From positions 96,286,001-96,350,000 of the forward strand of contig OX597822.1 of the NCBI GenBank assembly GCA_951406725.2: a stretch of 64,000 nt of DNA. Reading direction: 5' to 3'. The position numbers and the translations under genes are program-made. Under the pieces are notes generated by a model, which saw nothing but the letters and a program-made list of their open reading frames with translations, was not told the origin of the DNA and ran no database searches. Numbering within the stretch: the first letter of the stretch is position 1; each line of letters starts with the position of its first letter. Below are positions 32,285 to 52,918 of the stretch, one piece after another. This DNA is from Octopus vulgaris. Taxonomy: Eukaryota.

Positions 32285-32419
32285 CCCTTATTATATAATG
32301 AGCATTATTTTTTCATAAAGTGATGTGTTTTCAGTTATTCCATGCGAGTTTTGCATATTATCATCCGAGCTATGTGAAGTGTGGTCAAAAAAGGGATATC
32401 AAAAGCTCTTTTCATTAAA

Positions 32420-33097
32420 TGAAGTTCTGTTGTGTCTGGGGAGAGTCATTCTCTTTTAGGGCCTTATTATTTAACACACTCACCGGGAAAATTTCCACTT
32501 ATTTCTTATTTTTATTCTCTAAAATTTTCGTTGCGTGTTGCAACCTTTTCACGAGGGTCAGCACTATTGAAAAGGTTGCAACACGCAACGAAAATTTTAG
32601 AGAATAAAAATAAGAAATAAGTGGAAATTTTCATGGTGAGTGTGTTAAATCCTAAAAAAAGACTCCGCCGGTTACGACGACGAGGGTCCCAGCTGATACG
32701 ATCAACGGAACAGCTTGCTCGTGAAATTAACGTGCAAATGGCTGAGCATTCCACAGACACGTGTACCCTTAACGTAGTTCTCGGGGATAATCAGCGTGAC
32801 ACAGAGAGTGACAAGGCTGACCCTTTGAAATACAAGTACAACTCATTTTTGCCAGCTGAGTGGACTGGAGCAACGTGAAATAAAGTGTCTTGCTCAAGGA
32901 CACAACGCGTCGCCGGGAATCGAACTCACAACCTTACGATCATGAGCCGAATGCCCTAACCACTAAGCCACGCGCCCTCACAGTGTGTTAAATAATAAGG
33001 CACTAAAAGAAAGTGACTCTCCCCAGACACAACATAATATGCTTCAACACACGAACTCATATAAAGAATCTTGCAAACCAAATCCGAAAAACGAAAT
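32420..33097. mobile_element. Penelope-like repeat as an inverted pair with a UUGAAAA hammerhead-like motif (32564-32600)
   Basis: 32420-32550 is the reverse complement of 32569-32650 plus 32982-33035; same family as the 44.7-47.4 kb array. Confidence 0.65.
32662..32981 (-). mobile_element. SINE with family 4 head and family 1 tail
   Basis: TSD agtgtgttaaat. Confidence 0.85.
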
Positions 33098-33262
33098 TAA
33101 ATGAAGTTGTTTTCGTTTTATTGTATTTTCCTGTGTGGTTTCAGTGCTACTCCGATTTGTCATTCTGTTTTGTTGTGGTGTATGTCTGTAGTATTAGAAT
33201 ACTGTTGGGAAGTGTAGCATTTGTTCCATGATGGAAATGGGTGTGGGTAAAGTGGATAGTTT

Positions 33263-33650
33263 GGAAGCACTCTGTCGGTTACGACGACGAGGGTTCCGGT
33301 TGATCCGGTTGATCAACGGAACAGCCTGCTCGTGAAATTAACGTGTAAGTGGCTGAGCACTCCACAGACACGTGTACCCTTAACGTAGTTCTCGGGGATA
33401 TTCAGCGTGACACAGAGAGTGACAAGGCCGGCCCCTTGAAATACAGGTACAACAGAAACAGGAAGTAAGAGTGAGAGAAAGTTGTGGTGAAAGAGTACAG
33501 CAGGGATCACCACCATCCCCTGCCGGAGCCTCGTGGAGCTTTTAGGTGTTTTCGCTCAATAAACACTCACAACGCCCGGTCTGGGAATCGAAACCGCGAT
33601 CCTATGACCGCGAGTCCGCTGCCCTAACCACTGGGCCATTGCGCCTCCAC
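33263..33650 (-). mobile_element. Full-length SINE family 1
   Basis: TSD aaagtggatag. Confidence 0.92.
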
Positions 33651-34584: not shown

Positions 34585-35732
34585 TCTTTTCTACTCTAGG
34601 CACAAGGCCGAAATTTTTGGGGAAGGGGCTAGTCGATTAGATCGACCTCAGTACGCAACTGGTACTTAATTTATCGACCCCAAAAGAATGAAAGGCAAAG
34701 TCGACCTCGGCGGAATTTGAATTCAGAACATAAAGATAGACGAAATACCTATTTCTTTACTACCCACAAGGGGCTAAACACAGAGGGGACAAACAAGGAC
34801 CGACAAACGGATTAAGTCGATTATATCGAACCCAGTGCGTAACTGGTACTTAATTTATCGACCCCAAAAGGATGAAAGGCAAAGTCGACCTAGGCGGAAT
34901 TTGAATTCAGAACGTAACGACAGACGAAATACCTATTTCTAATTCTTTACTACCCACAAGGGGCTAAACACAGAGAGGACAAACAAGGACAGACAAACGG
35001 ATTAAGTCGATTATATCGACCCCAGTGCGTTACTGGTACTTAATTTATCGAACCCGAAAGGATGAAAGGTGTAGTGACGTTATACAACAGTGCGCGCGCG
35101 CAACGTCATTTTCAGTGTGCGGGTGCGGAACGTCCTTCTTCAGTGTGCGTGTGCGGGGTTGGAGCCTTCTGGAAAGGCAGAAGGGAAGTGCTCTCTCGGA
35201 TATGCGCGAAGACTGAAGAAGGAATTGCTGGTGTGGCATTAGCTGATAGGCGAGGGACAGCGTTCCCTTAACAAGGACACAGAGAGACACGCATAGCAGC
35301 AGTAGCAGAACGCCTTCATACGAGATTGTGGCAGACCTATTTTTCTCCGCTGTCTCTGGACGCTAAGATTTGACCTGCTCTGTTTTGCTGCTGAACTTGT
35401 TGTAAGATTCTTACAAGTGTTAAAGTTCAGCCTTGCCACACCAGAACCAAGTGGATACCTATATACCACCTTACTTCTTTCTGTGAATAAGAAAATAAAG
35501 AATATATATATTTTTAAGGTTGCGTTCGTGTTCCTTGACTGGTAGATTCTGGAAATTAAAGAACGGAAATTGTGTTGCACCTGAGTTGCACCCCAAAAGT
35601 GTAAGAAGCAACGAGTTCCCGTTACAAAGGCAAAGTCGACCTCGGCGGAATTTGAACTCAGAACGTAACGGCAGACGAAATACGGCTACGCATTTCGCCC
35701 GGCGTGCTAACGTTTCACCCAGCTCGCCGCCT
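34585..35732 (-). mobile_element. SINE family 3 multimer interrupted by a solo LTR
   Basis: One 17-bp TSD, tcatctgctttaataat, encloses the whole multimer. Confidence 0.9.
35070..35626 (+). mobile_element. Solo LTR, 557 bp, probably Gypsy type
   Basis: TGTA...TACA ends, 4-bp TSD aagg, splits the SINE motif gatgaaagg|caaagtc; AATAAA near 35494. Confidence 0.8.
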
Positions 35733-36286: not shown

Positions 36287-36500
36287 CATATGAGAACCAG
36301 TGACCATTTTTATAACTTTCAGATTTTTTTACCCGCAGTGTTTACGAATGGTGACATTTATTATTAGCTACTCTTAGTCTGGTTTCTACCGCTAAATATA
36401 CATATTAATTGTCATAATTATGTATGCATGCATATTCTATTTCGTTCCCATAATAAAACCCAATATAGATTAATTCATTGTATACAATAGTAGAATTAGT

Positions 36501-37370
36501 TTAATATTATATTTGAATTGTTAGGAGTCAAAGGACTAGAGTGGGATCTTTTCCTTTTGAACGGCATATGTCAACACAATTTCTAGTTAACTAAACACTT
36601 TTAAACTTCGTATACTGGTAGAATGTGTTTATAAAACACCGATTTTTCTTTTAAACTTCCTATACTGGTAGAATGTGTTTATAAAACATCATTTTCTCTT
36701 GGTTTTATTGAGAAAATTCTATAGTTTGTAAGATATTTCGTCTGAAAATCCGAGCATTTCGGCAATTTTAATATTATATTTGAATTGTTAGGAGTCAAAG
36801 GACTAGAGTGGGATCTTTTCCTTTTGAACGGCATATGTCAACACAATTTCTAGTTAACTAAACACTTTTAAACTTCGTATACTGGTAGAATGTATTTATA
36901 AAACATCGTTTTTTCTTTTAAACTTCCTATACTGGTAGAATGTGTTTATAAAACATCATTTTCTCTTGGTTTTATTGAGAAAATTCTATAGTTTGTAAGA
37001 TATTTCGTCTGAAAATCCGAGCATTTCGGCAATTTTAATATTATATTTGAATTGTTAGGAGTCAAAGGACTAGAGTGGGATCTTTTCCTTTTGAACGGCA
37101 TATGTCAACACAATTTCTAGTTAACTAAACACTTTTAAACTTCGTATACTGATAGAATGTGTTTATAAAACATCGTTTTTTCTTGGCTTTATTGAGAAAA
37201 TTCTGTAGTTTGTAAGATATTTCCACTTTAAAATCGAGCATTTCGGCAATTTTAACCAATCAAATACGTCCATTTAGGTAAACAACATTCCGTGCTGTAT
37301 GAATATGTCCCTCGTTTAAGAAACAGATTGGGTTTATTTACATTTGCGAAGAAAAAAAGATACCCTTAAC
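36501..37370. repeat. 267-bp tandem triplication of flank plus GGATC-MITE left end
   Basis: Units start at 36501, 36768 and 37035. Confidence 0.9.
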
Positions 37371-39952: not shown

Positions 39953-40366
39953 AGGCGGCGAGCAGGCCGAAACGTTAACACGCCGGGCGAAATGCGTAGC
40001 CGTATTTCGTCTGTCGTTACGTTCCGAGTTCAAATTCCGCCGAGGTCGACTTTGCCTTTCATCCTTTCGGGGTCGATAAATTAAGTACCAGTTAAGCACT
40101 GGGTTCGATATAATCGACTTCATACCTATGTCTGTCCATGTTTGTCCTCTCTGTGTTTAGCCCCTTGTGGGTAATAAAGAAATACGTATTTCGTCTGTCG
40201 TTACGTTCCGAGTTCAAATTCCGCCAAGGTCGACTTTGCCTTTCATCCTTTCGGGGTCGATAAATTAAGAACCAATTATGCACTGGGGTCGATGTAATCG
40301 ACTTAATACCTATGTCTGTCCTTGTTCGTCCCCTCTGTGTTTTGCCCCTTGTGGGTAGTAAAGAAT
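39953..40366 (+). mobile_element. SINE family 3 dimer
   Basis: TSD tatactgaa. Confidence 0.9.
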
Positions 40367-40667
40367 TATATACTGAAACACCGCCTCTGTAATTATACGA
40401 TGAAAAACTATAAACACGCATGTCGGGTTGCTTACAAATACACAGGGAAGTCTCACGTTTGGTCCGTCATAAAAAAAACAACAAAAAAAAATGTTATGAA
40501 CATTAGATTTATTTAGGAATGAGGTTCACGAACTTTGTGGTCCTGGACATGTACATGTATAGTACAGCAACGCCCCTCGACGTTCTGTGCCCTGTAGACC
40601 GGTTTCATGTATGACAATTTTTCCGCGTAACGAGACATCAGGCGCAAAACATGACACAATAAAGTAT

Positions 40668-41070
40668 CCTCTGTGTGAAAAGTCTGGTTGCATACACGTT
40701 AGCATATGTCTGGTGCATACACGTTAGCATATGTCTGGTGCATACAATTGACAACACAGTTAATTAAGATTTATTCAGTGAGTTCTATTCAACACATGTT
40801 TACATTAGATGAAGGCATTTACAAAGTTTTGGCCGATAAAGTTGAACTGAAAAACCCTACAACGAGGCATGAATTGCACGAAGCCGTCTTGCAGTCTTGG
40901 GAAGAGCTATCTGAGCAGAAAATTCGTGGATGTATTCAACATCAAACTAGTGTTTGTCGTCAAATAGTTGACTGTCGTGGTGGTAACAGATTTGTGTAAT
41001 AAATTTTGTGTTTATTTTTGTTTCATAATATATATTTTTTTCGGATGCAGCCAGACTTTTCACATAATAT
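40668..41070 (+). mobile_element. Internally deleted Tc1/mariner element retaining the transposase C-terminus
   Basis: TIR tgtgaaaagtctggttgcat / atgcagccagacttttcaca; LADKVELKNPTTRHELHEAVLQSWEELS...IVDCRGG. Confidence 0.75.
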
Positions 41071-41109
41071 ATAATTTAATTACTACATATATTAATATAA
41101 TAGATATCT

Positions 41110-41850
<741 letters not shown>

Positions 41851-41976
41851 ATATGAATATTAAATATATAAAGCAAAATTACCCTGCAGACTTCGTTAGT
41901 CAGTAGAACAGGAATAAAATTTCAAAATTTATTCTGTGCCAATTGATCCACACCTCGGTGTTTGGGGACTTCTGCA

Positions 41977-42379
41977 GGATATTTTCGCTTGAAACGGCAG
42001 TTTTTAACATAATTTCTAGGTGACTAAACACCTTTAAACTTCGTATACTGGTAGAATGTGTTTATAAAACATCTTTTTCTCTTGGCTTTCTTGAGAAAAT
42101 TCTATAGTTTGTAAGATATTTGTTGTTGTTTTTTTCCTTCAATTTCTGCAATTTCAACCAATCAATGACGTCCATTGAGGTAAAAAAAACATTCTATGCC
42201 GTATGAATATGTCCCTCGTTTAAGAAACAGATTGGGTTTATTTACATTTCTGAAGAAAAAAAAGATACCCTTCCCCCCATCCCTTACCCTAACCCTAAAA
42301 CAGATTGAAATGCAATAGATCGATACTAGGGTCATAATTATGGGTGACAATTTCATATGACACCGCTAGAAAAAGATTC
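41977..42379. mobile_element. GGATC-family MITE with a damaged right TIR
   Basis: Matches the 24002 copy; TSD cttctgca. Confidence 0.85.
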
Positions 42380-43521
42380 CTTCTGCATTACAGTATTTTT
42401 GCGGATGACTGAGCATATTTAAGGTTAAAGAGACCAAACATCATCCGATTCATCTCATCTGCGCACCAGAAGCTAAGCGCTACGCATTTTAATTTTCTAT
42501 CCTATGACTTATTGAAAACTCGGCTGTTAAACACACTTGAACAGCTTTGCTATACATGCTACAGGTTAGTTGCCAGAGTAGTTGTCTTTTTTTTTTCTCT
42601 CTCTCAAAAAAGTTTTAGTCGTATACACAGGACAAAAATTCACATAATTAGCATTTTTAACCCACTTGAGCAATATGTCGTAGTTTGTGTTAGTATGACC
42701 TTGTATACACAATGACTAACACAGTTTGAGCAATGTGGCTTAACATAGCTTTTTTTGTGTAGGACAGCTTTTATCTACGAGAAATTTTATTTATCCTGTG
42801 ACTTTAGTTTTTAAGCTGGTTTATCATTATATTCTTTAATGAGAAATTGCTATGACGCGTCTAAATTAGGTTTGAAAATGAATGTATAGAATATTTGATG
42901 CGTGGGTTGTTCCAGGCCTGGAAACATGAAACATGAACGAATGTGACGTGGAAATCATGCGTAAATGGCTCATTTCCCCGGGAAAGGAACGATTTGACTG
43001 CTATTTCTTGCACGCTCTACTACTTCGTAATAGGTATTTCGGGTCCTTTATCGCAAATAGGTGTTACGTGGTAGCAGGGTGTGCCAGAAATAGCAGCCAA
43101 ACTTTGGAGGTGAGATACGTTGAATGCACTCGAAAAAAATCTATAGAAAAAAACCATTTAACACCGAGGTTACGAACGGGTCTTTTACTAAATATTTTCT
43201 AAATATGCCAAAAAAATTTTTGTAATTGTATTCACTTGAAAATAAGTTTAAAAAAACATAAAAATATTGTCTGTTTAAAGAAAGCTAAAATATGAATACT
43301 TACTGTACAAACTACTTACATTTTTGAAATCACATTCACTTAAAAATATTTCTGAATGATTAAAATATTACGGAGATGTATTTGCATAGCAAGTGACTTG
43401 ATCTGAGATCGTATGCTGAAACAAAACAAAAAAAAAAACATTGCAGCGTGGAAGATGTTTGTAGGCCATTTAAGAACACACAAAAACTGTTAGTTTCATT
43501 TCAACATTTAAATCTAAATTG

Positions 43522-43568
43522 TGTCAAAATATTTTCGTCGCTTTGCAACAGCGACCTGTTCACTGGCA
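43522..43568 (-). ncRNA. Hammerhead-like motif with a swapped G3:C8 core
   Basis: UGCCA GUGAACA G GUCGCU..AGCGAC GAAA AUAU UU UGACA. Confidence 0.55.
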
Positions 43569-44022
43569 AAACTTCATGTTGTGTTTAACAAAAGAGAAAA
43601 TAGAAGCATTCTTTCTCTTTTGTTTTTCTCCGTCACAACATATGAATGAGAATGGAAGGAGTGAAACTTAACGTAATTTTTTTCTTAGAGAGTGAGAGAG
43701 AGAGCATGACTATGAGTGTGTATATGTCACAGATAGCGTACGGGTGTTTGTGTTGATTCACATGCCATGACATTCATTATATGTGTGTGTGTTTTGTATG
43801 TGTGCTGACGTCAGGGAAGCCATATTTATTTTTCGTCAAGAAATAACAAACAAAAATTGTGGTTAATCGTTTTCATTAATAAACAGAGGTCCAGATATCA
43901 CAAAACATCGTACTGCACTGCATAAAGTAAGTATGAAAATAAATATGTAAAAACAATTAAGATAAAATATACTGTTTCTGAGATATTTTGGTAACAAACG
44001 AACATCTTGAGTTTTAGTATTA

Positions 44023-44407
44023 TCTCTCTCTATATAAACGGCAGTTTGTCTGTGCGTGTTTCTGTGTGTCTGTCAGGTTGTACCCTCACCCTGACAACGG
44101 CTTTCAACCGATTCTGATGAAACTTGACACACACATAGCCCAATGTCATAATTCAAAACTAACGCAGCGAAAATTTTGAAAAGTTCCCCCAGTTCTGAAA
44201 AAAATCGATAAATTCGACATGGGGTCGAGAATCAGAAACACAAACCACAAACTGTCTAGGGGACGCAACTCCACCTTTTTTAACACTCAAAAAAAATTTA
44301 CCATAATTTTTTTTCCATTTTTTTGCTATTTTTTGGCTATAACTCTCTAAAAATGCTTTATAGTTATTTCCCTTACAAACCTGAGCAACGCCGGGCGATA
44401 CTGCTAG
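44023..44407 (+). mobile_element. Helitron family B
   Basis: A|TC...CTAG|T. Confidence 0.85.
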
Positions 44408-44499
44408 TTAAGATTTAAAATGTCCGCAAGGCCCTACAGGTTATAAAACAGTTGATTAATGCAAATGAATAGGGATCATCAATTATAGTTTCCCATCGC

Positions 44500-44703
44500 T
44501 GTAGAGGATCCAATATCGATTTTTTAAAAAATCTAAGTAGCCTGTGTTCGGGGCTGGGATATGAAGCAGCTGTGTATAAAGTTTTAAAGAAATCAGGTGA
44601 AAGATGTAGAAGTTATTGAGGTACATCAATTTTTTGTACAGAGAGAGAGAGGGGGACGGACAGACGGAGAGAGAAAGAAAGCTTCAATTTTATAGATATT
44701 AGA
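44500..44703 (-). mobile_element. 5' part of another Helitron-like element, repeated at 46165-46340
   Basis: Minus-strand start tctaatatctataaaattgaag followed by a (tctg/tccg) tract, like the other Helitron 5' ends. Confidence 0.55.
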
Positions 44704-47262
44704 TATATGTAAAACTATTGTCAAAACTATTGAAAAGGTTGCAACACGCAACGAAAATTTTAGGAAAATAAAAATAAGAAATAAGTGGAAATTTTATAGA
44801 TATTAGATATATGTAAAACTATTGTCAAAACTATTGTCAAAACTATTGAAAAGGTTGCAACACGCAACGAAAATTTTAGGAAAATAAAAATAAGAAATAA
44901 GTGGAAATTTTATAGATATTAGATTAGATATATGTAAAACTATTGTCAAAACTATTGAAAAGGTTGCAACACGCAACGAAAATTTTAGGAAAATAAAAAT
45001 AAGAAATAAGTGGAAATTTTATAGATATTAGATATATGTAAAACTATTGTCAAAACTATTGAAAAGGTTGCAACACGCAACGAAAATTTTAGGAAAATAA
45101 AAATAAGAAATAAGTGGAAATTTTATAGATATTAGATATATGTAAAACTATTGTCAAAACTATTGAAAAGGTTGCAACACGCAACGAAAATTTTAGGAAA
45201 ATAAAAATAAGAAATAAGTGGAAATTTTATAGATATTAGATATATGTAAAACTATTGTCAAAACTATTGAAAAGGTTGCAACACGCAACGAAAATTTTAG
45301 GAAAATAAAAATAAGAAATAAGTGGAAATTTTATAGATATTAGATATATGTAAAACTATTGTCAAAACTATTGAAAAGGTTGCAACACGCAACGAAAATT
45401 TTAGGAAAATAAAAATAAGAAATAAGTGGAAATTTTATAGATATTAGATATATGTAAAACTATAGTCAAAACTATTGAAAAGGTTGCAACACGCAACGAA
45501 AATTTTAGGAAAATAAAAATAAGAAATAAGTGGAAATTTTATAGATATTAGATATATGTAAAACTATTGTCAAAACTATTGAAAAGGTTGCAACACGCAA
45601 CGAAAATTTTAGGAAAATAAAAATAAGAAATAAGTGGAAATTTTATAGATATTAGATATATGTAAAACTATTGTCAAAACTATTGAAAAGGTTGCAACAC
45701 GCAACGAAAATTTTAGGAAAATAAAAATAAGAAATAAGTGGAAATTTTATAGATATTAGATATATGTAAAACTATAGTCAAAACTATTGAAAAGGTTGCA
45801 ACATGCAACGAAAATTTTAGGAAAATAAAAATAAGAAATAAGTAGAAATTTTATAGATATTAGATATATGTAAAACTATAGGCAAAACTATTGAAAAGGT
45901 TGCAACATGCAACGAAAATTTTAGGAAAATAAAAATAAGAAATAAGTAGAAATTTTATAGATATTAGATATATGTAAAACTATTGTCAAAACTATTGAAA
46001 AGGTTGCAACACGCAACGAAAATTTTAGGAAAATAAAAATAAGAAATAAGTGGAAATTTTATAGATATTAGATATATGTAAAAGTATTGTCAAAACTATT
46101 GAAAAGGTTGCAACACGCAACGAAAATTTTAGGAAAATAAAAATAAGAAATAAGTGGAAATTTTTTAAAAATTAAGATAGCCTGTGTTCGGGGCTGGGAT
46201 ATGAAGCAGCTGTGTCAAAACTATTAAAGAAATCAGGTGAAAGATGTAGAAGTTATTGAGGTACATCAATTTGTACAGAGAGAGAGAGGGGGACGGACAG
46301 ACGGAGAGAGAAAGAAAGCTTCAATTTTATAGATATTAGATATATGTAAAACTATTGTCAAAACTATTGAAAAGGTTGCAACACGCAACGAAAATTTTAG
46401 GAAAATAAAAATAAGAAATAAGTGGAAATTTTATAGATATTAGATATATGTAAAACTATTGTCAAAACTATTGTCAAAACTATTGAAAAGGTTGCAACAC
46501 GCAACGTTTTCAATAAAGTTAAGAAATAAGTTTTGACAATTTTATAGATATCTAGATATATATAAATTTTTATTTTTATTTTCTAAAATTTTCGTTGCGT
46601 TGAAAAGGTTTCAAGTTTTGACAATAGTTTTAGGATATATCTAATATCTATAAAATTGAAGTTTTCTCTCTCCGTCTGTCCGTCCCCCTCTCTAAAACTA
46701 TTGTACAAAAAATTGATGTACTCAATAACTTCTACATCTTTCACCTGATTTCTTTAAAACTTTATAAGAAATAAGAAATAAGAAATAAGTAGAAATTTTA
46801 TAGATATTAGATATATGTAAAACTATTGAAAAGGTTCAAAACGGAAATTTTAGGAAAATAAAAATAAGAAATAAGTATAGTCAAAACTATTGAAAAGGTT
46901 GCAACATGCAACGAAAATTTTAGGAAAATAAAAATAAGAAATAAGTAGAAATTTTATAGATATTAGATATATGTAAAACTATTGTCAAAACTATTGAAAA
47001 GGTTGCAACACGCAACGAAAATTTTAGGAAATAAAAATAAGAAATAAGTGGAAATTTTATAGATATTAGATATATGTAAAACTATAGTCAAAACTATTGA
47101 AAAGGTTGCAACATGCAACGAAAATTTTAGGAAAATAAAAATAAGAAATAAGTGGAAATTTTATAGATATTAGATATATGTAAAAGTATTGTCAAAACTA
47201 TTGAAAAGGTTGCAACACGCAACGAAAATTTTAGGAAAATAAAAATAAGAAATAAGTGGAAA
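44688..47262 (+). repeat. 104-bp tandem array, each unit with a UUGAAAA-core hammerhead-like motif
   Basis: Period 104 (45021, 45125, 45229...); about 19 motifs; scrambled inverted patch at 46500-46870; runs into the parent repeat up to 47390. Confidence 0.9.
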
Positions 47263-47402
47263 TGTTACCGGTGAGTGAGTTAAATAATAAGGCACAAAAC
47301 GAAAATGTCTCTCCCCAGACACAACAGAATATGCTTCAACACACGAACTCCTATAAAGAATCTTGCAAACCAAATCCAAAAACGAAATAGATATATGTAT
47401 AT

Positions 47403-47822
47403 TCATTACACACATGTGAGTGAGAACACTTTGAGATATTTTTGGTATCTAACATATGTCAGATACTGCGAGCGCTGCTTCTGATTGGTCAATCCATGGT
47501 GATGACCCGAGGTCACGGTGACAGCGCTGCTTCTGATTGGTCAATTCATGGTGTTGACCCGAGGTCACGGTGACGGCACTACTTTTGTCATTCATAAGTT
47601 ACAACTAAACGTGAAGAATTTAGTTATTGGGTTAATAAAATATGGTCGTTTATTCATGTGTAATAAATAAAATACCAAACTCATTCCCTATGGATACCGT
47701 ATTTATTACAACGAGTGGCTTGTAAACGTATCTAACTCGCTTTCACTCGTTAGATACGTTTACAAGCCACGAGTTGTAATAAATACGGTATCCATAGGGA
47801 ATGAGTTTGGTATTCTCTCTAT
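47403..47822 (+). mobile_element. Crypton-like palindromic element, second copy
   Basis: Near-identical reverse complement of 38468-38883. Confidence 0.55.
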
Positions 47823-48659
47823 ATCTTTAAAGGCAATGGCAAACCACCCCAATATCTCTTGCTTAGAAGACACTATGAATAAGTCAGAACGAGATAACGC
47901 CACGACTTCATTCCATGGGAGACCTCACGCTTAATCTGGAAAACTTTCGTCGTAGTGTCATTAACGCGTTGCAATAGCGTACGATGCATGACGTCGACGG
48001 GGTAAGAATTTCTCTGTCTGAAGAATTTCTAAAAAGAAATTCCTCACATGTCTATCTAACATGTAAAACTTTGTTATTCCTATCAGCAAATGAAACACGT
48101 GTAATGGTGAATAAATAACACCCAAAAAATCCCCCCCTTCCTGTTTTGTTACACAATAACTCTGCAAATAATGTTTCCATTATTCTCAATTTTAATGTTT
48201 CGTTTGCCTAACATCCAGCAGGCAGCTGGGACCACATATTGGATTTTAATAATGGAATAAGCAGATGTGCTTCAAGAGGAAACAGCTGGAATTTACCCGA
48301 ACTATATAACCAACTGGTGGAAGATCTGCCTAGGGTTAAATAAGTAGTAACATGGAACATCCACTTTGATATGGCGATATATATAGAGCTATATATATAT
48401 AGTCAATAATAATAAAGAGTAAAATTAATTAATTAGTAATTAATAATTAATAATAATAAATAATTAATAATAATAAATATATATAATAATATATAATATA
48501 TAATAATAAATAATTAATAATAATAAAGGGTAAAATTAATTAATGAATTAGTAGAGGAAATAGCTAAATTCTTTGGCTGCTATTTCTAAAAGTTCGGTAT
48601 GTGGTAAAGCAAATTTTTTTGCTGAACCCTAATTATATAAAGTAATATATATATATATA

Positions 48660-49043
48660 TATATAAACGGCAGTTTGTCTGTGTGTGTTTCTGTGTGTCT
48701 GTTTTCTCGTACCCTCACTCTGACCACGGCTTTCAACCGATTCTGATGAAACTTGACACACGCATAGCCCAATGTCATAATTTAAAACTAACGCAGCGAA
48801 AATTTTGAAAAGTTCCCCCAGTTCTGAAAAAAAAATCGATAAATTCGACATGGGGGGTCGAGAATCAGAAACCCAAACCGCAGACCGTCTAGGGGACGCA
48901 ACTCCACCTTTTTTAACTCTCAAAAAAAATTTACCATCATTTTTTTTTTCCATTTTTTTTGCTATTTTTTGGCTATAACTCTCTAAAAATGCTTTATAGT
49001 TATTTCCCTTACAAACCTGAGCAACGCCGGGCGATACTGCTAG
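48660..49043 (+). mobile_element. Helitron family B in a TA tract
   Basis: 3' hairpin and CTAG|T. Confidence 0.85.
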
Positions 49044-49115
49044 TATATATATATTTGTTTTTGTTTTTTTCCAGTTTCAGCTCTTGAGCTGTGGCCATGC
49101 TGGGGCACCGCCATT

Positions 49116-49278
49116 GTGGTGAAAGAGTACAGCAGGGATCACCACCCCCTGCCGGAGCCTCGTAGAGCTCCCTAGGTGTTTTCGCTCAATAAACACACAC
49201 AACGCCCAGTCTGAGAATCGAAACCGCGATCCTGCGACCGCGAGTCCGCTGCCCTAACCACTAGGCCATTGCGCCTCT
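49116..49278 (-). mobile_element. SINE family 1 5' fragment
   Basis: Head rc ccattgcgcctc. Confidence 0.85.
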
Positions 49279-49299
49279 ATAAAGAGGAAAACAATTATT

Positions 49300-50252
49300 T
49301 TTTAAATCTCTGAGCGAGAAGCAGTAACAGTACTACAGAGTAAAATCTATTTCCCAGCGTAAATTGACAGTCCTGATTAGGACGATATTACTACCTTTCT
49401 TAGACACTGGAAAACATTTTTTCCTGCTGGCTACCGACGCACAACTGCATCCTTATACCTTGAGCAAGGGACCTAATGTCCCTACTCAGTCTCAAACGGT
49501 AGCTGCGGACGGCGGTTTCTGGGTTATTTCCCTCCATCGGCTCAGAATAACCGTTGACAAGAGATGACAGCACTAGGCCTTGTTCGACGTACTGTTACTA
49601 CTTACTTCTCGCTCAGAGATTTAAAACCAATGGTTTTTATCCTCTTTACGAGATCAATGGCTGTGTGTCACTTTAAAAGTATATACCTCGAACAAGGCCT
49701 GGTACTGCTATCTCTATCTCTAGCCAACGGTTATTCTGTGCCGATGAAGAGACATAACCCAGAAACCATGGTTCGTAGGTACCGTTTAAGGCTGAGTGGG
49801 GACATTAGCTACCTTGTTCGAGATATAAGGACGCAATTGTAAGTCGGTAGACAGCTAGAAAAGATGTTTCCCTGTGCTAAAAAAAAGGTAGTAACATCGT
49901 CCTACCTTACGTTGGCAAATAGATTTTACTCAGTAGTACTGTTACTACTTCTCGCTCCGAGATTTCAAACTAATTGTTTTCCTCTTTACGAGATCAATGA
50001 CTTTATGTTACTTTGAGAGTATGTACCTCCAGCATCTTTAGCCAACGGTTACCCTGTGCCGATGGAGAGACATTACCCAGAAACCATGGTCCGCAAGTAC
50101 TGTTTAAGGCTGAGTAGGAACATAAGCTCCCTTGTTCAACGTATAAGGACGCAATTGGGCGTCGATAACCTGCTGGAAAAGCTGTTTTCTTGGGGCTAAA
50201 AAAGGTAGTAAAATCGTCCTAATCAGGACTGCCAATTTACGTTGGCAAATAG

Positions 50253-50259
<7 letters not shown>
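49300..50259. mobile_element. Retrozyme/Penelope-like array: one inverted and two direct units of 325-347 bp
   Basis: Units at 49589 and 49936 (+) and 49300-49588 (-); decayed hammerhead motifs at 49736-49778, 50054-50096 and 49503-49545. Confidence 0.65.
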
Positions 50260-50283
<24 letters not shown>

Positions 50284-50292
50284 TCTCTTTGA

Positions 50293-50324
<32 letters not shown>

Positions 50325-50596
50325 ATATATATATAGTGTGTGTATATGTGTGTGTATGTATGTATGTATGTATGTATGTATGTATGTATGTATGTATGTA
50401 CGTACGTACGTATGTATGCATGTAGGTAGGCAGGCAGGTAGGTAGGTAGGTAGGTAGGTAGGTAGGTTGGTAGGTAGGTAGGTAGGTAGGTAGGTAGGTA
50501 GGTAGGTAGGTAGGTAGGTTGGTAGGTAGGTAGGTTTGTAGGTAGATAGGTAGGTAGGTAGGTAGGTAGGTAGGTAGGTAGGCAGGCAGATAGGTA
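50260..50596. repeat. Compound (CA)(CT)(ATGT)(GTAG)n microsatellite
   Basis: Seen directly. Confidence 0.97.
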
Positions 50597-50867
50597 TGAG
50601 TCACCTATCGCCTGCAAACGTGTGTGACTTTGTAATATGCAACTTGTCAGCTGTTTCAGGTGCCTAATGTAGTCGCTATGTAGCCTGCCTTCGTCTTCAG
50701 GACGAGGTTACTTTTGAAGTCTTCTTTGAACAGCCACATGTCAGTGTACGTGTAAAACAAAACAATGCAGTTACTAATGAGAGTTGGAATCAATGCATGC
50801 AAGATTTCACAGCTCTGGCACCACCTTCATGGTCAGCCTATGGACCTTTCAGCGCCCACCCTCGTCT

Positions 50868-50902
50868 ATGTGTGTGTGTATCTGCATGTCTGTGTGTTCG
50901 TA

Positions 50903-50935
<33 letters not shown>

Positions 50936-50948
50936 TTGTGTGTTCGTA

Positions 50949-50981
<33 letters not shown>

Positions 50982-51120
50982 GTGTCTGTGTCTGTGTCTG
51001 TGTCTGTGTGTGTGTGTGTGTCTGTGTCTGTGTGTGTGTGTGTGTGTGCGTGTGTGTGTGTGTGTGCGTGTGTCTGTGTGTCTGTGTGTGCGCGTGCGTG
51101 TGCGTGTCTGTGTGTGTCTG

Positions 51121-51174
<54 letters not shown>

Positions 51175-51222
51175 GTGTGTGTGTGTATGTGTCGTATGTG
51201 TCGTGTGTGTGTGTGTGTGCGC
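50868..51222. repeat. Imperfect (GT)n microsatellite
   Basis: Seen directly. Confidence 0.97.
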
Positions 51223-51406
51223 GCATAAATTTGCTGTTTTTAATTAATTTCATTCTTGTCAAATTTACACTGAGAAACGACTGTCCGAAAGTTTGGCTTT
51301 TCCGTTCGTCACAGCTAGTTCACTGTAAGATTTTTTAGCGATTTTACAATATAATATAATTCTTGCCGACCAGCACTAGCAACAGCAACAGCCTTTATAA
51401 AGTCAT

Positions 51407-51443
<37 letters not shown>

Positions 51444-51730
51444 CTAAAACGAATGATTGAAAGCAGAACATTTGGAAGATTTTCGTTTCTTATTCTTCCA
51501 CATATTTTGCTTTGGTATTTATAAGTAAATATAATAGTAGATATGCATCGATGCTGTAGGTGGACTAAGTTATGAACATTAGATTTATATTTAGGAATGA
51601 GGTTCACGAACTTTGTGGTCCTGGACATGTACATGTATATTACAGCAACGCCCCTCGACGTTTTGTGCCCTGTAGACCGGTTTCATAGACTATAATAACT
51701 ACCCTAAAGTTCAACCCTTCCTCAAAGCGG

Positions 51731-52020
51731 TAGGGTGGTATAAACGAGCAGTGTCAGAGCTATGCCGTCGGGAACTTCGGTTCCTGGTAAGGGCCACCCA
51801 AGGCGGATTGGTCTGGCACCGAGCGGTATTAGGGCCTCAGCCTGGCCAACGGGGTTCTGGTGAAAATTCCAAGAGGCGTTTGATCGGCAACCGGCGGCTT
51901 CGAGGTCGTTCTGTCCCTGCGTCACTCGGGATATGCATGCGGGATGTCGGGGACCGCTTGTGAATTCAATATTCCCACGAAATATTCTTCTCAGAGAAGA
52001 AGCCGGCTCAGCCCACCCTG
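51731..52020 (+). other. GC-rich segment with features of a structured RNA, unidentified
   Basis: Closing stem agggtgg/ccaccct; hairpins ggaac-TTCG-gttcc and cgg-caa-ccg. Confidence 0.4.
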
Positions 52021-52319
52021 GCTAAGTGCCGTCACAAGTACAAGTAAGTACATAGACTGTAATAGTAGGAGGAGTAGGTACATCAGGGTCTATGTTGACA
52101 AACAAATTAGACTACACAAGAATGAATGGTTGTTAGCAGCAGACGAAATACACACACATATGCTGGGTGTGCTGGCTAAATTTGACGGTTTGCTCAGTAG
52201 GAAAAGGAAACGCAATGTCCTAACCAGAAATAAAAGTATTTTAAAAAATCAAAAAAAAAAAATCGACTACAAGGGGAAAACAAAAATCATCCGCACTTTC
52301 ACCATAACATATCTTTATC

Positions 52320-52918
52320 TATTTCTTTATTGCCCACAAAGGGCTAAACATAGAGGGGACAAACAAGGACAGAAAAAGAGATTAAGTCGATTACATCGAC
52401 CCCAGTGCATAACTGGTACTTTATTTATCAACCCCGAAAGGATGAAAGGCAAAGTCGACCTAGGCGGAATTTGAATTCAGAACGTAACGGCAGACGAAAT
52501 ACCTATTTCTTTACTACCCACAAGGGGCTAAGCACATAGGGGACAAACAAGGACAGACAAACGGATTAAGTCGATTACATCGACCCCAGTGGGTAACTGA
52601 TACTTAATTTATCAACCCCGAAAGGATGAAAGGCAAAGTCGACCTTGGCGGAATTTGAACTCAGAACGTAACGGCAGACGAAATACCTATTTCTTTACTA
52701 CCCACAAGGGGCTAAGCACAAAGGGGACAAACAAGGACAGACAAACGGATTAAGTCGATTACATCGAACCAGTGCGTAACTGGTACTTAATTTATCGACC
52801 CCGAAAGAATGAAAGGCAAAGTCGACCTCGGCGGAATTTGAACTCAGAACGTAACGGCAGACGAAATACGGCTACGCATTTCGCCCGGCGTGCTAACGTT
52901 TCTGCCAGCTCGCCGCCA
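52320..52918 (-). mobile_element. SINE family 3 trimer
   Basis: One 16-bp TSD, cataacatatctttat. Confidence 0.9.

Follow-up and report, generated by a model that had tools for sequence, protein, structure and literature searches.

The 104-bp tandem array found in this octopus DNA is best read, with moderate confidence, as a by-product of a retrotransposed insert: the end of a Penelope-like element (PLE), carrying a hammerhead motif with a U3:A8 core, would have inserted, the 104 bp spanning its 5' junction would have been duplicated by slippage and expanded, and the ribozyme would be a passenger that is probably weak or silent. The motif itself is real and of a known type, multiplied by a local tandem duplication that is partly mis-assembled in the sequence available. 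What is new here is that the array lies inside one retrotransposed insert with a 12-bp target-site duplication, and that a second copy of the same family has a 13-bp duplication and an inverted head. All coordinates refer to the window, the whole 64-kb stretch of DNA that was analysed.

Layout of the array and its parent insert

Tandem Repeats Finder placed a 104-bp period with 96% matches in two blocks: 44686-46179, with 14.2 copies, and 46876-47267, with 3.8. A descriptor scan, which accepted either hammerhead core, a stem II of at least 4 bp, a palindromic stem III region and a stem I of at least 3 bp, found 19 intact motifs in the array between 44727 and 47237 (14 in the first block, one in the middle and 4 in the last block), which count as one event and not as 19 independent observations. 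Outside the array, on either strand of the window, the same scan found one intact motif only, at 32564-32600, and the 104-bp unit occurs at one locus within the 64 kb. The features are listed below.

32414..33108, no strand assigned: second independent insertion of the same family, with its own 13-bp target-site duplication
44021..44408, plus strand: Helitron-like non-autonomous element 1, with 5' TC, a 3' hairpin and CTAG/T
44410..44703, minus strand: 5' portion of element 2, tentatively Helitron-like, with its tip A/TC running from 44703 downwards
44686..46158, plus strand: clean array block of 14 units, of which 12 measure 104 bp and the other two 116 and 109 bp
44700..44711, plus strand: left target-site copy, 12 bp, contained in every unit
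44790..44796, plus strand: first tandem junction, a 7-nt microhomology common to the Helitron-like tip (44686-44692) and the insert
45056..45092, plus strand: example of a candidate minimal hammerhead, by comparison with the published consensus, with the predicted cut after 45089
46161..46876, no strand assigned: suspect segment, in which the left flank and units 1 and 2 are repeated, once forward and once inverted
46877..47262, plus strand: second array block of about 4 units, the last being the same 30C>G variant unit that ends the clean block
47263..47387, plus strand: remainder of the Penelope-type insert, downstream of the last unit, with the same 3' end as the copy at 33095
47388..47399, plus strand: right target-site copy, 12 bp

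Each unit opens with 26 bp of upstream target DNA and goes on with 78 bp from the 5' end of the insert. The target part combines the tip of the minus-strand Helitron-like element, which accounts for the unit's initial 18 bp, with the left target-site copy. An earlier note on this DNA had described a unit in which microhomology links the tip of a Helitron-like element with a Penelope-like fragment, and this description holds; the shared word is AATTTTA, 7 nt long and not the aatttt given there, when judged against the family's usual continuation in public contigs, and in the last unit a G at 47264 leaves a match to it at 6 of 7 positions. What that account had passed over is the 12-bp target-site duplication bounding the whole insert: its two copies (44700-44711 and 47388-47399) enclose the array and the tail together, and at least 12 shared letters were found in 11 of 20,000 random pairs of 30-mers. 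The tail also has a donor-like G/GTGAGT at 47270-47276, a consensus match only.

The second insertion carries its 13-bp duplication at 32414-32426 and 33096-33108 (8 of 20,000 random pairs shared at least 13 letters). An inverted, 5'-truncated arm (32427-32551, minus strand) stands ahead of a forward arm that begins at 32557 and holds the intact motif at 32564-32600, and a further insertion, about 340 bp long and with its own 12-bp duplication, breaks the copy. The resemblance between the two window copies stops at the same 3' letters, and a target-site duplication with a fixed 3' end is present in 2 of 2. No reverse transcriptase (RT) or GIY-YIG frame was seen by eye in the list of open reading frames of the window, both copies being short, and when the 44-residue open frame in the tail served as a protein query, 1 candidate came back and nothing was significant; membership of the PLEs therefore rests on non-coding hallmarks, which make a PLE end, brought in by retrotransposition, the likely identity of the insert. 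The window as a whole is microsatellite-rich animal DNA, in which no long coding frame was recognised by eye and ARAGORN found no tRNA genes; elsewhere it holds unrelated local tandem duplications of 184, 267 and 52 bp.

Contigs of four public runs, out of 24 listed, were compared with 44330-44900 only (571 of about 3,200 bases in the region); individual runs are called X1, X2 and so on. The parent segment is very abundant in all four. The summed contig depth of 44720-44796 ran from 1e5 to 2.7e6 across the runs, which is not a copy number, and in X1 it was about 1e6, whereas contigs that differ from the flank at 0-3 positions reached about 10, a gap of several orders of magnitude. In each of the four runs, 44720-44796 normally continues into the insert tail and not into the Helitron-like tip (42-190 contigs per run, at an agreement of 0.76-0.87). 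Among the joints listed, many of opposite strand fall at 44720-44727 in contigs of all four runs, and joints that go back from 44795 to 44726 or 44734, and from 44791 to 44726, occur in X2 and X3. An earlier description of an abundant U3:A8 family in octopus or other cephalopods was not found in a search that stopped short of subscription papers and repeat libraries, and this abundant parent element with its minimal hammerhead is the more useful by-product of the analysis.

Two Helitron-like elements precede the insert. The first, at 44021-44408, which we take to be Helitron-like from terminal features of the kind described for the group, resembles copies at 12579 and 48650 with a mean column identity of 92%, and it ends the recognisable part of the second, cutting it off at 44409. 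The second has its 5' TC after an A (44702-44704) and diverged relatives in public contigs of X1-X3; neither a 3' hairpin nor a CTRR end was seen in the portion left by the truncation, and its Helitron label is tentative.

The suspect segment and the growth of the array

The stretch from 44688 to 47262, which the earlier note had treated as a single continuous array, is in fact interrupted at 46161-46876 by forward and inverted re-runs of the left flank. Beyond unit 14 the flank starts again from 44521 and units 1 and 2 recur (104 and then 116 bp), and the segment holds one intact motif (46364-46400), one that is broken and one that is both inverted and broken. Both re-runs are overwritten in place by unit words of 12-13 nt: in the forward one, four substitutions turn the flank into a 13-nt unit word with its length unchanged, and in the inverted one a plus-strand unit word stands in place of part of a microsatellite, while 46507-46660 is pieced together from stretches of 9-19 nt whose strand alternates. 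The segment looks mis-assembled, in a pattern that fits majority-vote polishing with misplaced array reads; a real rearrangement by template switching is possible, and we think it the less likely of the two by some distance. The second array block is likely a second rendering of the array's end, because it ends with the same 30C>G variant as the clean block, and the last four units look redundant. The figure of about 19 copies thus survives as the number of intact motifs that the descriptor finds and fails, given the suspect segment, as a true copy number. The true array would be near 14 units in size, with 46161-46876, and probably the last block too, being products of assembly or polishing.

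Pushed further, the same doubt would make the array mostly an assembly artefact, in a genome with one or two units. The marks of a bad consensus in 46161-46876 (same-length overwriting, a wrong-strand word, alternating patches) favour this, as do the double appearance of both the start and the end of the array and the sampled words of 44300-47500, of which a fraction of 0.43 at most was found in any run. The clean block, on the other hand, has variants that are few, recurrent, CpG-type and nested, with no scattered errors, and polishing with unit words itself implies many unit reads. Contig depth in the bin just behind the tandem junction (44810-44829) was 429 in X2, several times the 26-111 of that run's longest listed pieces, and 47 in X3; these depths suggest that the tandem junction exists as DNA, and X2 might be the source sample. 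In the same bin the depth was 1.63 in X1 and 0 in X12, which by our guess is an RNA run; this gap would fit a polymorphic array or filtered records, and a hole in contigs proves nothing. Among the contig pieces and joints listed, none spanned the tandem junction with 31 letters to either side, which makes the X2 and X3 depths indirect evidence. No RNA run was among those listed as containing the sequence, a result that says nothing about expression. An array that is largely artefactual is, in our judgement, improbable.

The clean block carries a record of how the array grew. The array is colinear, with the flank on its left, the insert tail on its right and target DNA inside the units, and this colinearity on both sides indicates growth on the spot and not the arrival of a concatemer of free units; the make-up of the unit, target plus insert closed by the 7-nt microhomology, argues for the same. 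Insertion of a ready-made concatemer of a free unit was rejected because the units hold target DNA of their own site. Identical units make up 8 of the 14 in the clean block, in keeping with the earlier view of a young array in which most units are identical. Units 11 and 12 have three changes in common, one of which also occurs alone in unit 8; slips at the junction amount to 12 nt in unit 2 and 5 nt in unit 3, and a 12-mer is doubled at the 5' end of the insert. Mutations common to neighbouring units indicate that earlier copies were themselves copied, through slippage or unequal exchange. In the account that we prefer, an insert of about 200 bp, bounded by the 12-bp target-site duplication, lies beside the tip of the Helitron-like element, and its motif would belong to the pseudo-LTR of a PLE family; the first duplication may have been a slippage or a template switch at the 7 shared letters, and later expansion would have proceeded by slippage or unequal exchange.

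An alternative to growth after insertion is that the array was written during it, by a telomerase-related PLE RT that looped between target and template through the 7-nt microhomology. The enzyme would reach the 5' end of the template, run onto 26 nt of target DNA, re-anneal and repeat the loop. Such looping would account for an array that stands exactly at the 5' junction of the insert, within one outer target-site duplication, and for the left target-site copy in every unit, and it would accommodate the small slips in units 2 and 3 and the doubled 12-mer. The joints in X2 and X3 that go back show other copies of the family repeating their 5' part, and template jumps have been proposed for PLEs in the literature available to us. 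The nested shared mutations, in contrast, point to the copying of copies and not to one template re-read, and the other local tandem duplications in the window (184, 267 and 52 bp) are unrelated to the insert family. We consider it unlikely that looping by the RT wrote the array, and slippage after insertion is preferred; the two processes could also both have acted in turn. The target-site duplication, the microhomology and the order of insertions are all readable at this one locus, and with boundaries that can be read in this way the slippage and RT-looping models are distinguishable with alleles.

The hammerhead motif and its predicted folding

The motif CUA...UAG is present at 45056-45092 exactly as first described. 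It comprises a 3-bp stem I, the U3...A8 A9 core, one extra G, a 5-bp stem II closed by G10.1-C11.1 and capped by a 5-nt loop, GAA, the palindromic AAUU and U17 (a UUU site). Its reading as a minimal hammerhead-type motif with a U3:A8 core, in which stem III is possible only between two copies (through the AAUU palindrome), was borne out. The U3-A8 core is present in 20 of 20 intact window motifs, which are identical save for one loop C>T present in 4, and all 14 clean units keep an intact motif. The caveats originally attached to it, a 3-bp stem I and a poor UUU site, name features that are indeed both present, and both are common in the published alignment; published motif rows contain them, which makes them typical of the class, and the proposal that they disqualify the motif was rejected on the same ground. 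The U3:A8 core as something new was likewise rejected, being already in Cervera & De la Pena 2014.

Among dinucleotide-shuffled versions of the unit, 2 of 20,000 contained a minimal hammerhead with one or the other core, and 0 of 20,000 contained one with a 5-bp stem II plus the extra base; shuffles of the rest of the window (n = 20) gave 1 motif in total. The motif folds at -6.0 kcal/mol, with a z-score of only -1.9. No match to the Rfam hammerhead families was found at E <= 10 within 40000-52000, which says little because minimal motifs lack stem III. Exact-pattern scans for relatives of the motif in metagenome contigs gave 0 matches, and the contig tables of public runs consist of single columns only, from which no paired changes are readable.

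Folding was predicted with ViennaRNA, which ignores the tertiary contacts of the core, and the figures stand without a positive control. In transcripts of 2 and 3 units, stem II had a predicted probability of 0.99 and the inter-copy stem III of at most 0.005. Forcing the dimer was calculated to cost 3.3 kcal/mol for stems II and III, 7-8 kcal/mol with one stem I added and 11.8 kcal/mol with both, and a forced dimer with the core held open would lie 14-16 kcal/mol above the ensemble; the dimer fold is, on these estimates, predicted to be unfavourable. For the same fold, 18 of 60 shuffled spacers were predicted to be as good as or better than the natural spacer, which therefore bears no mark of having been selected for dimer formation. 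The circular monomer (104 nt, 23% GC) was predicted at -4.8 kcal/mol, a value that 40 of 200 shuffles equalled, and in the copy at 32557 stem II had a predicted probability of 0.0, being sequestered by the inverted arm. Lunse et al. 2017 reportedly worked on PLE hammerhead dimers.

These predictions bear directly on whether the array is a newborn retrozyme, that is, whether it is transcribed and its motifs cleave as cis dimers to release 104-nt monomers or circles, as the earlier note had supposed. The intact motif in every clean unit, the short spacing in cis and the high predicted probability of stem II are what such a system would have. The array also falls within the working definition of Li et al. 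2026 as given in the accessible text (at least two consecutive motifs, below -5 kcal/mol), with 14 consecutive motifs at -6.0 kcal/mol when that definition is applied with our own descriptor and not theirs. One PLE hammerhead, from an anole, has been reported to cleave, only with the element's protein added; in the same report, as far as its available part goes, this hammerhead was unneeded for insertion in vitro and no RNA read ended at its site (PMC11167929). Rare core variants, for their part, have a lower rate and are presumably still active (PMC7151607, seen in part). Intact motifs, however, are expected in any young array; the predicted probability of stem III is negligible, and the full active fold would lie 12-16 kcal/mol above the ensemble, again as computed without a positive control. 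The putative circle would be poor in GC and fold no better than its shuffles, whereas the circles of retrozymes are 170-400 nt long and highly paired. In the published experiments available to us, minimal dimers and trimers cleave weakly in vitro (Cervera & De la Pena 2014, PMC4209133), and among predicted frog retrozyme dimers 1 of 9 was cleaved and 8 of 9 were not (Li et al. 2026, bioRxiv 10.64898/2026.07.22.740005). Predicted folding, together with the fact that comparable dimers cleaved little or not at all in vitro, disfavours 104-nt monomers or circles, and we give a newborn retrozyme little credence. We regard the array as probably no new ribozyme system but a repeat that is carried along as a passenger: in a read-through transcript two motifs could come together in cis, and any cleavage would be slow without a helper protein. 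Should 104-nt circles be found, they would be among the smallest retrozymes, with a birth datable to a single insertion.

That the motif is a chance hairpin in the A-rich end of a repeat, and no hammerhead, is very unlikely. The blank Rfam search, the ease with which a U3:A8 box arises in A-rich sequence, the modest z-score of the fold and the variation of the window motifs at one loop position only, with no covariation seen, are all compatible with chance; the rarity of the motif among shuffles of the unit, the match of three features outside the core boxes and the location in a retrotransposed element of PLE-type structure are not. Very improbable too is a retrozyme caught at birth, in which RT looping wrote U3:A8 tandems at a spacing of 104 nt that cleave with protein help into 104-nt circles, the parent being a very large undescribed cephalopod family.

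Comparison with known systems

The closest published motifs are the minimal type I hammerheads in the pseudo-LTRs of metazoan PLEs, which have no stem III and fold only as dimers (PMC4209133). In the available part of that source, the core boxes are YUGANRA and GAAA, with positions 3 and 8 paired as C-G or U-A, and four features emerged unasked: covariation, an extra base between 9 and 10.1, a G10.1-C11.1 pair and a palindrome at 15.2-16.2. The U3-A8 core is recorded there with about 1,300 matches in Schistosoma mansoni, where Cercyon elements carry it. In its figure S3, a stem I of 3 bp goes together with U3-A8 and U17 in row S. mansoni 4; an oyster row has a 3-bp stem I, a 5-bp stem II, a 5-nt loop, an AU palindrome and U17. 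The octopus motif resembles this set in its U3-A8 core, extra base after A9, G10.1-C11.1 pair, palindrome, 3-bp stem I and U17, and in its high copy number, opposite-strand pairs and dimer model. It differs in that the extra base after A9 is G here and H in the consensus (G in 1 of the 56 rows, as we read them), in its octopus host (that alignment, as seen, has no cephalopod), in motifs that are only 104 bp apart, and in having no linked RT frame at this locus. This 2014 paper is the only one in which we found U3-A8 in the literature searched, and the available text of the O. vulgaris repeat paper (PMC13282606) makes no mention of ribozymes and contains no sequences.

Canonical retrozymes and hammerhead satellites are known from coral, mussel, axolotl and newt satellite 2 (PMC7229834, PMC6155905, PMC6765202, each available in part). 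The array shares with them a tandem arrangement, one type I hammerhead per unit, low GC and, in principle, cleavage as a dimer. Canonical non-LTR retrozymes, as described in the accessible text of Cervera 2020 (PMC7229834), have canonical motifs, highly paired monomers of 170-400 nt, many loci and demonstrated circles. Here, in contrast, the motif is minimal, the 104-nt monomer is poorly paired and the array is known from DNA alone; the array unit lies outside the class as delimited there by a canonical motif and a highly self-paired monomer of 170-400 nt.

Penelope insertions, in the portions of the literature at hand, are characterised by end repeats of about 200 bp, inverted heads and duplications of 8-10 bp (PMC3846280; bioRxiv 10.1101/2021.04.23.441226), with an optional tail of 30-40 bp (Arkhipova et al. 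2013; Craig et al. 2021). The two window copies are like them in the end repeat of about 200 bp, the inverted and 5'-truncated head, the short target-site duplication and the AT-rich target, and unlike them in duplications of 12-13 bp and in having no coding part. The opposite-strand joints in public contigs, and those that go back, agree with the inverted heads and partial tandems of PLEs.

The nearest counterpart to the array itself is in Li, Clavereau & Pollet 2026 (bioRxiv 10.64898/2026.07.22.740005), who, in the text available, describe PLE-derived tandem hammerhead repeats of 51-972 bp, with coelacanth units of 98 bp on average, and propose that a PLE end is locally amplified into a tandem hammerhead repeat. 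The U3-A8 core, the logic of dimer folding and PLE-derived tandem repeats of this size range were thus already in print, and the novelty that had been seen in a ribozyme satellite falls away. Like those retrozymes, the octopus array has one hammerhead per unit, derives from a PLE end and was locally amplified; unlike them (vertebrates, insects and a coral in the part seen), its unit is chimeric with target DNA and one locus is known. The locus is accordingly a tidy case of the route already proposed, from a Penelope end repeat to a local tandem repeat that bears a hammerhead.

Possible head-to-tail form of the parent element

The 11 letters that close both window copies at their 3′ ends (47378-47388 and 33086-33097) recur upstream of the hammerhead segment in the contig-end consensus of X12, a public sequencing run, although this consensus was built from 12 contig ends (loose end before window position 44720) with an agreement of only 0.54. 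This recurrence hints that the parent, a putative Penelope-like element (PLE) end repeat, may also be present as a head-to-tail monomer of ~215 nt, which would itself be an abundant retrozyme-like unit.

Predicted fold and interruption of the inverted-pair copy

In the predicted fold of a read-through transcript of the inverted-pair copy (around 32540-32581), both arms join in a long hairpin and stem II is abolished, and inverted-pair copies are thus predicted to be inactive. This second hammerhead element is also interrupted:

32639-32993, ~340-bp insertion bounded by a separate 12-bp target-site duplication

Sequence resembling the insertion is found again at 33276-33450.

Neighboring elements and local repeats

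Compared with the array flank, a contig from a second public run, X1, shows 3 differences in 167 bases, plus 61 further letters unlike Helitron-like element 1 (44021-44408, + strand). As these extra letters do not fit element 1, the comparison suggests either that the element is missing in X1 at 44408-44409 (a polymorphic insertion) or that the contig represents a close paralogue.

Mobile elements in local tandem form are common within the window, as evidenced by six runs:

17046-17480, 22375-22907, 34631-35069, 40001-40365 and 52319-52869, five distinct runs, each with 2-3 tandem copies of a single 184-190-bp repeat
36500-37184, 267-bp tandem run

Immediately right of the Penelope-type insert lies a further repeat, likely a small foldback element; its microRNA matches in Rfam are weak and below threshold:

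47679-47806, long near-perfect inverted repeat

Donor-like site past the predicted cut

A splice-donor-like G|GTGAGT is present in all three window arms, ~40 nt from the predicted cut:

47270-47276, array insert tail (consensus match only)
32479-32485, − strand, inverted arm of the second insertion
32624-32630, forward arm of the second insertion

The motif lies just beyond the end of the 104-bp unit. The family's usual continuation likewise carries it ~40 nt past the predicted cut, and 5′ introns have been reported for PLEs.
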